From NCBI GenBank assembly GCA_964016885.1, contig OZ024745.1, positions 63,116,001 through 63,180,000 of the forward strand: a stretch of DNA of 64,000 nt. Direction: 5' to 3'. The notes under the pieces are model-generated. The model was not told the origin of the DNA. It saw only the letters and a list, made by a program, of their open reading frames with translations, and ran no database searches. Origin of the DNA: Eledone cirrhosa. Taxonomy: Eukaryota. The stretch's first letter is position 1. Every line of letters begins with the position of its first letter. A program made the translations under genes and the position numbers. This document shows positions 12,889 through 56,732 of the stretch, piece after piece.

Positions 12889-13398
12889 ATAAGTTAAAAG
12901 AATGAAATATAAAATCAAGTCATTAGAGATATACTTCACTGCTTTACGATCGTTTCTAGGTGGTGATAATACATTGTAGCTATTCTCTGTTATTGATCTA
13001 TGTAAGGTTAGTTACAAAATATCAGATAAAGAGAATATTTACTTACATGCATAGAACCAGATGTTTTCAAAAGCAATTGCTTTTAAAAACAGCTGGTGAT
13101 ATGCATGTAAGTAAATATTTTCTTTATCTGATATTTTGTAAATAACCTTACATAGATCAATAACTGAGTATAGCTACAATGTATTATCATAACCTAGAAA
13201 CGATCGTAAAACAGTGAAGTATATCTCTATTGACTTGATTTTTTATTTCATTGTTTTAACTTATTTCATGACTCTGTTTTCCTTTTAATGTTTAATTGTT
13301 TTCCGGGATTTATCTTAACCTACAATATTTTCAACATATGGATTACATCGAGTTCTTCATTTAGAATAGAACCCATAACATACTGTGGATACCTCTGT
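12889..13398 (+). mobile_element. Fold-back element: about 376-bp spacerless imperfect palindrome (12889-13264) plus unpaired tail
   Basis: Symmetric about AAGCAA|TTGCTT at 13076/13077. Arms contain GAAACGATCGTA (hammerhead helix III-like). The tail ends in (TA)n. Confidence 0.8.
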
Positions 13399-15359
13399 GT
13401 ATATATATATATATACATACATACATACATACACACACACACACACACACACACACACACACATATATATATATATATATATATATATATATATATATAT
13501 ATATATATATATATATATATATATATATATATATATATATATACATATATATACGTATATATATATATAAACATATATGTATATATATATATATATATAC
13601 GTATATATATGTATATATATATATACATATACATACTATTAATAATGAGTTCAAAACTCAGGCAGTCCTTTACAATGAAATAGCTCAAAGAAAGAAGTAT
13701 TTCTGAGCCAATATGCTTTGTTTATATTGATTTAATATTTTAAATCGAGACAGGCAAACTGTATTATTATAATTAGTATATTTCAATCTAGGTAATTTAG
13801 TCATTTACAATACAAACACAGATATGTTGGTATTTGTATTTATCAGATATATTAATTTATATTAACTTGTATTACATATACATATATATATGTTTATATA
13901 TATATATATATGTTTATATATATATATATATATATATATATATATATATATATATATATATATATACGTATATATATGTATATATATATATATATATATA
14001 TATACATGTATATATATATATATATATATATATATATATATATATATATATATATATATATATATATATATATATATATTTATATATATATATATATATA
14101 TATACGTATATATATGTATATATATATATATTTTTTTAAAATTTTAAATTTGTTTCGCAACAATTAAGGGAAATTTCCTATTACTGTGCTCTTCTGCAGG
14201 TATCCAGAAATTGGTAAGTTTCACTTCAAAATACTTAGGAAGACTGAGAGAAATGTGTTGTTGAACGCACATGTGTCACAGTGTCTAGCACGTCCTATAC
14301 TCGTGTCGCTAAAAATAGCAGCAGGTTTTATGGGACTAAAAATTAGCTCAACGCTTGGAGCCGAGAATATTATATATAGAGTTATAAACTCAAATAGTCT
14401 TTTACAATTAAATAGCTCAAATAAAGGAATATTTCTGTGCCGTGTAATACAAATGAATATATGATAGGGATAAACACTGATACAAGTATACATGTGTTTG
14501 CATTGCAAATGACCAAGTTAGCTAGATTGAAAAATACTAATTAAAATAATACGGTTTGCCTATCTCGGTTTAAAATAATATATCAATACAAACAATTTCT
14601 GGATACCTGCAGAAGAGCACAGGAATAGGAAATTTCACTTAATTGTTGCGAAACAAATTTAAAATTTAAAATTTAAAATTTGTCCAGGTATCACGGCTAT
14701 TGCCAATATAGGTTTGTTTTTATTGATTTATTATTTTAAACCGAAACAGGCAAACCGTATTATTTTAATTAGTATTTTTCAACCAGCTAACTTGGTCATT
14801 TGCAATGCAAACACATGTATACTTGTATCAGTGTTTATCTCTATCATATATTCATTTGTATTACACGGCTCAGAAATATTCCTTTCTTTGAGCTATTTAA
14901 TTGTAAAAGACTATTTGAGTTTATAACTCTATATATATAGAAATATATATACATATATGTTTATATATATATATACGTATATATATATATATATATATAT
15001 ATATATATATATATATATATATATATATATATATATATATATATATATATATATATATGTGTGTGTGTATGTATGTATGTATGTATATATATATATACAT
15101 ATATATATATACACAGAGGTATCCACAGTATGTTATGGGTTCTATTCTAAATGAAGAACTCGATGTAATCCATATGTTGAAAATGTTGTAGGTTAAGATA
15201 AATCCCGGAAAACAATTAAACATTAAAAGGAAAACAGAGTCATGAAATAAGTTAAAACAATGAAATAAAAAATCAACTCAATAGAGATATACTTCACTGT
15301 TTTACGATCGTTTCTAGGTTATGATAATACATTGTAGCTATACTCAGTTATTGATCTAT
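13152..15359. repeat. Large inverted repeat 13152-13590 / 14943-15359 enclosing two further inverted repeats
   Basis: Outer arms are near-identical (both give the MFNCFPGF.. ORF). Inner pairs are 14133-14213/14593-14672 and 14371-14594/14714-14938. Confidence 0.88.
14602..14692 (+). ncRNA. Type I hammerhead fold with variant core CAGAAGA
   Basis: Stem I GATACCTG/CAGGTATC, helix II GCAC..TTGC, GAAA at 14650, helix III CAAATTT..AAATTTG, and a GTC cleavage triplet ending at 14684. Confidence 0.65.
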
Positions 15360-15654
15360 TGAAAGTTTTTGATCTATTGAAAGTTTTCAAGACTATACAG
15401 AGCTTTTGTAGTTGTTCCAAATTGAAGGATGAGTATTTTAAACTTTATTTTATCATGAGTGAAGGCTCTATTGATTTTTACTCTGGATTTCACTAAATTC
15501 TGGTCGATAAATCTATATCCTGATTCTTTTTGAATTGAGTTTGAATTATTTTTCCCACATCTTACGTTAACTATTTTCCCATTTTGACGCTATAGTCACT
15601 TATACATTATGGAATACTGTTGGCTTCTTGCTACAATATTTTCTATACTTTTCA

Positions 15655-16514
15655 TTTATATATGTATATTTATATATATATGTATATATATATATATATA
15701 TATATATATATATATATATATATATATGTATATGTATATATGTATATATATATATTTATATATATGTATATATATATATGTATATATATATATGTATATA
15801 TATATATGTATATATATGTATATATATGTATATATATATATATATATGTATATATATATATATATATATATATATATATATATATATATATATATATATA
15901 TATATATATATATACACACACATATATATATACATATATATATACATATATATATATATACATATATATATATATACATATATATATATATACATAGATA
16001 TATATATATATATACATATATATATATATACATAGATATATATATATATATACATATATATATATACATAGATATATATATATATATACATATATATATA
16101 TACATATATATATATACATATATATATATACATATATATATATACATATATATATATACATATATATATATATACATATATATATACATATATATATATA
16201 TATACATATATATACATATATATATATACATATATATATATATATATATATACATATACATATATATATATATATACATATATACATATATATACATATA
16301 TACATATATATATATATACATATACATATATATATATATATATATCCATATATACATATATATACATATATACATATATATATATATACATATACATATA
16401 TATATATATATATATCCATATATACATATATATACATATATACATATATATATATATATATATATATATATACATATATATATATATATATATATATATA
16501 TATATATATATATA
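15655..16514. repeat. About 860-bp interrupted (TA)n array
   Basis: Directly visible. Interruptions switch from G on the left to C on the right. Confidence 0.95.
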
Positions 16515-54828: not shown

Positions 54829-54883
54829 ACTGCTATATATATTTCGGTGACAGCCATCATTGTCTGTGACCTCTTCAGGCAGT
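54829..54883 (-). ncRNA. Type I hammerhead ribozyme, intact core
   Basis: Reverse complement of 56265-56319. Confidence 0.78.
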
Positions 54884-56264
54884 CCGAATTGGTGAGGGAA
54901 AGAGAGTTACATATGTTTTTGAAGTGTGTTTTACTCAGTCAATACATCGAGATGTCCAGCTCCTGGTAGTGTTGTTATTTCTCTGAGGAACTGGAATCAT
55001 ATGAGTTACAACATACGAATTTCGGTGTCATAGCACACGCTCGCATCCCATTGGTCAGTTGTCTATAGAAATTTTTCTGAGGCAGTGCAATCTGTTGTAG
55101 TTGTTTTTGTTTAAGTACAGCTGACCTCCTCCATTGTGTTGTAGTGGTAGTGGTCTTAAGGGGTCGGCTGGAAGGTCAGCTTTAGTGTGCTGCTGCTATG
55201 TTCATAAGAATTTGTGTATCTAGGTTGGCATCTATCCTGCCACCATTTCACGTGGTGGGGGTGCCAAACAAATAAAAAAATAAAAAATGTGTGTGTGTTA
55301 CAACCAATATCAAAATTTGAAAGATTTGAAAAATATTAACTGAAGTAGAAAACCTGTGTCAGAATCGAGAAGTGTAAAGAATTACAATTCTTACACTATC
55401 ATCGATTTGTGTGTTTTAAGAGCAAATAAGATAAAAGTGGAGTGTAAAACACCAAAAACCTGAGTGTCAAAACCCGGAAATGCAAAGGACTACAGTTCCC
55501 ATATCGGGACCTTTTTCTTTTTAAAGTACATACGCGTGTATCCCAACTCACATCGTTGCAAGCACACACTTACAAACACAGGCTCAGGTGCATTCCATAT
55601 GTATATATAAACACACATACACACATTATATACACACACACACATATATATATATATACATAAATATATATATATATATATATATATATATATATATATA
55701 TATATATATATATATATATATATATATACACATACATGTAAGTATCTATGTATGTATAATTTTAAACAGTATCTATGTATGGACATTACACTTCTCGATT
55801 ATTATTTTTCAAATCTTTCAAATTTTGATATTGGTTGTAACACACGCATTTTTTATTTTTTTATTTGTTTGGCACGCCACACCACGTGAAATGGTGGCAG
55901 GATAGATGCCCACCTACATACACAAATTCTTCTGGACATAGCAGCAGCACACTAAAGCTGACCCTTTAACACCACTACCACTACCAACACAATGGAGGAG
56001 GTCAGCTGTACTTAAGCAAAACAACTACAACAGATTGTCTTGCCTCAGATAAATTTCTATAGACTTTTGACTGGGGAATGTTCTCACAACTGACCAATGG
56101 GATGCGAGCGTGTCCTATGACGCCGAAATTCGTATGTTGTAACTCATATGATTCCAGTTCCTCAGAGAAATAACAACACAACCAGGAGCTGGACATATCG
56201 ATGTATTGACTGAGTAAAACACACTTCAAAAACATATGTAACTGTCTTTCCCGCACCAATTCGG

Positions 56265-56319
56265 ACTGCCTGAAGAGGTCACAGACAATGATGGCTGTCA
56301 CCGAAATATATATAGCAGT
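56265..56319 (+). ncRNA. Type I hammerhead ribozyme, intact core
   Basis: ACTGC-CTGAAGA-GGTCACAGACAATGATGGCTGTCACC-GAAA-TATATA-TA-GCAGT. Confidence 0.78.
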
Positions 56320-56732
56320 ATATCTATAATTTATAATAAACGAAACCGAATTTTACATATTTGACTTAATTATTTTACATTTATCTGGAGTAAACAAACC
56401 AGCCTGCATACTTCGTCGAGTGCTCCAAACTTTATACTGAGGTGTCGGTAAACAACCAACCTATACTCAATATATATATATATATATATATATATATATA
56501 TATATATATATATATGTGTGTGTGTGTGTGTGTGTGTGTGCGTGTGTGTACATCCATACGTACCCGCACGTGTACGCATACATATGTATGTATAGGCATA
56601 GACATATTAAGACAAACAATATAATGGAACTAAGTGACGAAACACACTCAATTATAAAAATAAAAACGTATATATATTTAAAACATGGTGGGTGTGTAAG
56701 GACATGGGGGAGTATCACTAAAATAATATAAT

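Follow-up and report, generated by a model that had tools for sequence, protein, structure and literature searches.

A predicted stem, present twice in the leaders of Hydra-clade Penelope-like retrotransposons, marks where their copies end

We analyzed a 64,000-nucleotide stretch of the Eledone cirrhosa genome ("the window": assembly GCA_964016885.1, contig OZ024745.1, positions 63,116,001 to 63,180,000). An initial annotation had noticed a short motif, TYGAGTGCT, in the 3' tails of repeats with hammerhead ribozymes. A bulged RNA stem, RCTC-P2...P2'-TH-GAGY-RCT, is predicted here, with the motif as its 3' strand; we call this stem a module. From their sequences, we assign the repeats to the Hydra clade of Penelope-like retrotransposons, and the module appears twice in their leaders. 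Copies end just before the first or the second module, and inverted pairs usually combine one end of each kind. We propose, with a probability of about 0.6, that the element's own protein binds to each stem, that each stem defines a start site for the element's reverse transcriptase (RT), and that the starts are divided between two nicked target strands, one apiece.

The motif and its partner strand

The initial annotation listed eight 10-mers, and all are present at their positions and on their strands. TYGAGTGCT occurs 7 times in the window (0.54 expected; none of 100 shuffles reached 7). As described earlier, the motif lies about 70-137 nt past the cleavage site, and its end is 43-75 nt from (TA)n. 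Five of the listed copies are linked to a hammerhead; at 13347, 50981, and 51828, the hammerhead core has decayed. The families are indeed dissimilar, but the eight copies represent seven of them, as 50635 and 51828 share one. Copies at 40021, 40506, and 46980 had been overlooked, along with variant forms at 46422, 12548, and 10966. Across the 3.0-Gb genome, the motif followed by 30-60 nt and (TA)5 has 73,704 matches (a single site is counted several times along a TA run), versus 2,201 for the reversed pattern.

The tails that share the motif are, for the most part, not alignable homologs. Only 3 of 55 pairs among the leaders of 11 families align (E < 1e-3), yet the proteins of the same families are 23-68% identical, so the conservation of the motif is local.

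The motif had been placed in an unpaired tail. Instead, it has an upstream partner strand: aligned copies contain an upstream ACTC, and the bases after it change together with the bases that precede the motif's TY. More generally, the module begins with RCTC-P2 and a loop of 8-73 nt; P2', a bulge of 2 nt (TT in 31 modules, TC in 12, TA in 5, and TG in 1), GAGY, and RCT follow. This description is from 49 modules, one per family and position, with 34 from this genome and 15 from other organisms. The suspected cis signal is thus conserved, but as a two-stranded, covarying, doubled stem and not as a linear motif. (In a sub-lineage comprising L137, L140, L150, and L119, AAC or AAA replaces RCT after GAGT, and L119 has an atypical bulge in module 1.)

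Several results support the pairing. First, P2 pairs 1-4 hold in 45, 41, 36, and 29 of the 49 modules, compared with shuffled means of 33.7, 22.4, 19.1, and 18.2. (The partner strands in this curated set were picked by eye.) The core also varies: its first pair is G-C in 24 modules and A-T in 21, and its third becomes A-T in 2. Second, a blind rule, which takes the nearest exact complement of the core as the partner, gives 40, 34, 32, and 27 P2 pairs in 46 modules (3 modules with no exact partner were dropped). With the bulge set to 0, 1, or 3 nt, the blind rule gave no excess of pairing over the shuffles. Third, in 14 modules of other organisms alone, 91% of the cells pair, which was equalled in 0 of 500 shuffles. 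Fourth, a protein tree of 15 families with both modules requires at least 20 Watson-Crick double changes. (This tree contains only the loci of this analysis; published proteins were compared with them by eye.)

Could the motif be a linear DNA promoter element? It resembles part of the B box of RNA polymerase III promoters (consensus GTTCRANNC), but with G or A where the B box ends in a conserved C. Its bases also covary with a distant partner strand, and it lies downstream of the hammerhead cut and marks the ends of insertions. The promoter that Penelope pseudo-long terminal repeats (pLTRs) are said to contain, in a statement in PMC11167929, is a point in its favor; still, we rate this as the least probable explanation that we considered. 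More broadly, RT recognition and endonuclease recognition both remain from the roles that the initial annotation had offered, and nothing we found favors a core promoter or a processing signal.

The hexamer AGYRCT, a degenerate palindrome, is found in 41 of 49 modules. It might be a self-dimerization site that joins two transcripts, aiding dimeric hammerhead cleavage and priming from two templates; the hammerheads here have a short palindromic helix III, a type known from PMC4209133 to act in dimers. But 15 of the 49 modules have AGCACT, which lacks full self-pairing, four of the six bases are engaged in the covarying helix, and both arms of an insertion apparently come from one template (see below). 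We consider dimerization quite improbable.

We also rejected a longer palindrome, GAG-TR-CTC (the base following RCT is C in just 20 of 49 modules), and a coding role for the motif as Val/Ile-Glu-Cys (the motif sits before the start codon).

Host elements and the second module

The initial annotation had suggested a comparison with Naiads, which is the wrong clade for the motif's hosts. Extending the family of the copy at 56415 upstream reveals a C-terminal GIY-YIG endonuclease with a CxCX5C linker, and this combination marks the Hydra clade, as the section on that clade in PMC8557442 describes. Family A, which includes the relatives of an open reading frame (ORF) at 57330-59394, has a single ORF with RT and, at its C-terminus, GIY-YIG, with intact frames of 713-718 amino acids among those relatives. 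Family B has C-terminal endonuclease pieces upstream of the hammerhead. A further protein feature of the Hydra clade is present in family A (positions 555, 658, and 689) and in family B, the two families whose C-termini were read. The RWK motif is found in families A and M, with RWR in B, C, E, and J; DKT replaces DKG in families A, C, E, and M and in the printed B sequence. (Pfam gave no match for the host protein, so these domains were assigned from motifs.) The hammerhead within the pLTR and the insertion into (TA)n are also Hydra-clade traits. In a family A tandem, the hammerhead repeats are 4.1 kb apart, inflated by microsatellites, compared with a size that is generally under 3 kb in the clade.

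Unlike in Naiads, the endonuclease is C-terminal and not N-terminal, and hammerheads are present; none of 10 GAGTGCT matches in the published consensus file has this layout. Nor are these elements non-LTR retrozymes, which are non-coding tandem repeats with hammerheads: copies at junctions run on into a Hydra ORF. (No ORF was found for families F, G, H, K, and S, so the continuation is seen only in the others.)

Family A has two further features. Its members L107-L118 have a second, diverged hammerhead in a long, microsatellite-rich 3' untranslated region. Also, many copies have intact 714-amino-acid frames, with pLTR stretches that are 100% identical, which suggests that the family was recently active. 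These intact frames are a source of protein for mutational tests.

What had been called a tail belongs to the next copy, as its 5' leader. Starting at the hammerhead, the leader continues with a U/A-rich stretch, module 1, and a spacer, then another U/A-rich stretch and module 2, up to the start codon. In family A, a GCTC/GAGC form of the module appears twice between the hammerhead and the start codon. As copies end just before a module in family A and at two loci of other organisms (L126 and L132), a module 2 was expected after the long ends of the window's families. At 12 of the 16 junction loci displayed (of 30), module 2 is present and is followed by a Hydra ORF within about 14-40 nt. Module 2 likewise leads into a Hydra ORF at 9 of 20 further, hand-picked loci. 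Genome-wide, a two-motif pattern has 2,246 matches, versus 323 for the control.

The module is also found in other organisms. Thirteen Hydra-type loci (L124-L136) lie on contigs within public prokaryote assemblies, labelled as bacterial; they are most likely contamination with host DNA. Among 12 of these loci examined, 9 have modules, and in L125, L126, L128, L131, and L132 the module is doubled ahead of the start codon. In the window, the top ten matches of a model built only from other organisms' modules include five of the eight sites in the initial annotation and five more; the model misses the long-looped modules at 48539, 56415, and 13347. By eye, six published Hydra consensus sequences (from coral, octopus, sea cucumber, and copepod) include three with a canonical module and two with a variant. 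One of the six carries two canonical modules ahead of the start codon; another stops too early.

A metagenome scan gave 2 spurious matches only, and viral contigs gave none. Tandem hammerhead arrays in the window's flanks have no module, nor, by eye, does the Poseidon template discussed below. Among 30 loci of another hammerhead type, 0 have a module in their own tail; this control is weak, as the loci represent few families of uncertain clade, and a count of zero would be expected from short-ended Hydra copies too. The comparisons with these arrays, this template, and these loci are weak but suggest that the module is a clade-specific signal.

Three other repeats deserve mention. The tails of a second, very abundant hammerhead type (L299-L328, and 59540-59642 on the minus strand of the window; 13,191 matches) have a short conserved stretch of their own, some 30-45 nt past the cut, which may be another clade's counterpart of the module. 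Retrozyme-like arrays of a hammerhead unit of about 466 nt lie in both orientations about 20.8-27.7 kb and 10.8-15.2 kb to the left of the window. Finally, near 14.24-14.25 Mb of G000:C1 (L159-L162), a tandem 58-nt unit combines a U/A-rich stretch with a module-like stem. It has no hammerhead and no ORF, and the same short sequence begins the tails of family S; it is possibly a product of repeated re-priming or a module-only satellite.

Copy ends, inverted pairs, and how they might arise

We located the ends of copies in four families. These copies were selected through their sequence upstream of the cleavage site, which kept the end from influencing the selection. An end is called short if it falls between -15 and +2 nt relative to the first base of module 1, and long if it falls in the same range at module 2. 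Of 132 ends, 73 are short and 53 are long; another 3 are read-throughs into the ORF, and 3 lie at other places. (The last three include a long end with a deletion and a hammerhead of another family.) In a wider and partly biased count of nine families, 133 short, 101 long, and 13 other ends lie beside a microsatellite. The same rule holds at L126 and L132, the two junction loci of other organisms. Module 2 is never within an inserted end, so the signal for a long end lies outside the part that is copied.

Inverted pairs follow a second rule. Among 86 primary copies, 34 inverted pairs could be classified: 33 have one long and one short arm, and none has two short arms. (Two of these loci may be one duplicated event.) In the window, all seven mapped pairs are long plus short, with the module in one arm and missing from the other; the initial annotation's remark that the inverted arm usually lacks the motif was thus accurate. 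As for the other primary copies, a hammerhead paralog or a read-through accounts for the arm in 6 cases, and 2 copies are themselves read-throughs.

At L200, L211, L235, and L241, as well as at 40435-40708 in the window, the arms do not overlap. In each, the long arm carries only sequence located 3' of the short end, which means that neither arm was copied from the other, and fold-back cannot produce this arrangement. (Fold-back as the only source of inversions is ruled out for the non-overlapping arms alone.) In 12 pairs of family D, the arms differ at 1.6 per 100 positions, versus 4.1 between loci, and they share 17 minority bases, which fits a single template. One copy, L280, passes module 2, then resumes at a point shortly ahead of module 1 and terminates at the short end; this is a template jump between two module neighborhoods. 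A few loci hinted that 5' junctions also cluster at the short site, but the wider count of nine families did not support this.

How might these patterns arise? In the mechanism that we propose, each module would be the protein's grip, and the cDNA would start on the U/A-rich strand just 5' of the module, briefly paired with nicked (TA)n. The endonuclease would nick both strands of the (TA)n target. One strand would prime before module 2, giving a long end in which module 1 is copied as the tail, and the other strand would prime before module 1, giving a short end. Probably two protein subunits would act on one RNA, and joining the two cDNAs would yield an inverted pair. As the arms continue upstream through an intact hammerhead, the template would be an uncut tandem RNA or a circle made by the hammerhead. 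A fuller version is more tentative, and we would put it at somewhat under even odds: the doubled, phylum-spanning stem would dock two RT subunits, and programmed twin priming on one RNA would cause both the tail and the inverted arms. If this version is true, the stem is a portable signal that lets a telomerase-related RT begin internally.

The main rival is resolution by the endonuclease. Here, GIY-YIG would read the module on DNA, as a hairpin or an extruded form, and would cut at the TA-rich site just 5' of it, so that the ends form after cDNA synthesis. The passage on tails in PMC8557442 ascribes the tail to endonuclease resolution, and in Drosophila the tail is needed for endonuclease recognition, according to earlier work that PMC11167929 cites. 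The palindromic hexamer would suit recognition on DNA too, as would the lack of a sense-strand preference in folding. However, every long end would need to lose module 2 by trimming after it had been copied, the non-overlapping arms require two separate primings, and the covariation extends across loops of 8-73 nt. In addition, in an assay of a Poseidon-clade enzyme described in PMC11167929, the RT starts coincide with genomic ends. We regard endonuclease resolution as clearly less likely than RT starts set by the stems, but as the strongest of the alternatives.

Another alternative is that the ends come from short U/A pairing with (TA)n, or from a few source copies, and that the stems have another role, such as guarding the 5' end left by the hammerhead or controlling translation. 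Most ends are beside 2-6 nt of TA-like sequence, the 10 nt ahead of the modules are 82% A/T, and the distance from module 2 to the start codon, 14-37 nt, is nearly constant. But the four leaders contain 23 alternating-TA runs of at least 4 nt, and none of the 16 that lie away from the modules has an end; conversely, 3 of 8 end sites lack such a run. The rule also holds in nine families here and at L126 and L132, and this explanation leaves the pairing of long with short arms in 33 of 34 cases unexplained. We think it doubtful.

Several observations weigh against our proposal. As regards the stem, the shuffles ignore kinship, and the tree gives just two double changes each at the first and third core pairs. 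Also, 34 of 150 tree cells are not Watson-Crick, many of them in old single copies. The curated partner strands were chosen by eye, with the blind rule concurring in 39 of 46 modules. In folding predictions, the core helix has a probability above 0.5 in 25 of 49 modules and in 22 of 49 on the opposite strand, so folding cannot choose the strand; an excess of G-U over A-C (13 versus 4) is a weak lean toward the sense strand (p ~ 0.05). Overall, the pairing is well supported, while RNA as the acting strand is only weakly so. As regards priming, 44 of the 86 primary copies have no inverted arm within 1.5 kb, one pair is long plus long, and the bases shared between arms could equally stem from fold-back or later conversion. 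Lastly, the Poseidon template printed in PMC11167929 has, by eye, no Hydra-type module, so the in vitro analogy crosses clades.

The proposal has several consequences. A compact covarying element predicts both ends of copies, in many families and several animal groups, as well as the end of each arm of an inversion. The question of tails and inverted ends can then be addressed with simple mutational tests. The module can also serve to find and delimit Hydra elements, of which this genome has very many. The relevant features of the window are as follows.

10966..11002, minus: further module match, followed by (TA)n after 34 nt
12430..12636: inverted pair of family S, in which module 1 (12548-12574, plus) has one base changed
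13271..13356, plus: module 1 of family H, 73-nt loop, motif variant at 13347; a decayed hammerhead core near 13128 and, to the left, by eye, a short-ended inverted arm at about 12880-13060
22349..22399, plus: type I minimal hammerhead of family E
22467..22494, plus: module 1 of family E, motif at 22485; the copy ends at (TA)n at 22554
40021..40043, minus: module 1 of family C, within the long arm of the inverted pair 39962-40314; new relative to the initial annotation
40435..40708: family E inverted pair with non-overlapping arms; long arm 40435-40516 (minus), with only the 3' strand of module 1, and short arm 40565-40708 (plus)
46422..46445, minus: module 1 of family A in the GCTC/GAGC form, compensatory relative to ACTC/GAGT; best match of the model from other organisms' modules
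46925..47410: inverted pair of family D; the long arm (minus) contains module 1 (46980-47007), and the short arm is on plus
47935..48620: inverted pair of family F; the short arm is on minus, and the long arm (plus) contains a hammerhead (48379-48426) and module 1 (48488-48548, motif at 48539)
48645..49073: inverted pair of family D; the long arm (minus) contains a hammerhead (48781-48833) and module 1 (48701-48728), and the short arm is on plus
50456..50711, plus: long-ended copy of family C, with hammerhead 50518-50564 and module 1 50622-50644; ends 3 nt ahead of the place of module 2
50981..51033, minus: module 1 of family G, 40-nt loop, hammerhead core decayed
51761..51971, minus: long-ended copy of family C/J, with module 1 51828-51850; one base changed in the hammerhead core
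54763..56480: inverted pair of family B; the short arm is on minus, and the long arm (plus) contains a hammerhead (56270-56312) and module 1 (56382-56424), whose 5' strand is decayed here and intact in relatives
57330..59394, minus: decayed, near full-length Hydra-clade ORF (RT, C-terminal GIY-YIG, CxCX5C linker); begins at its own start codon adjoining (TA)n, with several stops and frameshifts

A hammerhead with long helices at 62420-62600 (minus) has a 74-nt tail to (TA)n and no module; it is possibly the short end of another family. The window also contains broken frames at 41265-45014 (minus) that we take to be a Helitron-like Rep/helicase, and fragments at 19139-20331 (plus) and 36300-39400 that are presumably from the RT frames of other non-LTR retrotransposons.

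Comparison with known systems

In non-LTR retrotransposons, 3' RNA structures recruit the RT, and in twin priming by L1, two target strands prime on one RNA to give an inversion. In contrast, the signal proposed for Hydra elements would lie 3' of an internal start and is doubled, and the priming sites would be fixed and not depend on chance complementarity. In telomerase RNA, a protein-bound helix flanks a short single-stranded template, which pairs with a simple-repeat primer. The likeness to a module beside a short U/A-rich template is an analogy only, with no match in sequence or structure from Rfam. Nevertheless, the RTs of Penelope-like elements are the sister group of the telomerase RT (stated in PMC8557442), so an RNA element that sets the template start bears on the origin of template definition.

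The closest experimental parallel is PAc, the Poseidon-clade element whose enzyme is mentioned above. In the assays of PMC11167929, its RT has two internal start sites, which coincide with genomic ends; the RNA 3' of the start is needed, and both target strands are cut and extended. Like our proposal, this involves two internal starts that bound the tail, extension on both strands, and a predicted dimer. Unlike the starts proposed for Hydra elements, those of PAc are inside the ORF, at an AC-rich stem-loop, and only a few bases apart. The account of PAc in PMC11167929 locates the two starts without defining an RNA signal; it defines no conserved covarying element and draws no link to long-plus-short inverted pairs.

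Many features of our elements match the description of the Hydra clade in PMC8557442: the C-terminal GIY-YIG, the CxCX5C linker, RWK, DKT, the pLTR hammerhead, (TA)n targets, inverted truncated copies, and a tail that is often at one end only. The tail here is about 65-145 nt, compared with 30-40 nt in that description, and the two modules bound it. The same paper states that the formation of tails and of tandem or inverted ends is open. Its text on Hydra describes no cis element downstream of the hammerhead, although the module can be read by eye in its consensus file.

Rfam 15 gave 0 matches in the window at the gathering score and 0 at E <= 1 in one junction leader; it missed the hammerheads too, so its sensitivity here is limited. 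We found no description of the doubled covarying module, of its link to both ends, or of the long-plus-short rule in the literature, a search that left most subscription journals and Repbase notes outside. The hammerheads, the tails, their presence at one side only, and two start sites are already published. The module is a new cis element in a known class of elements.

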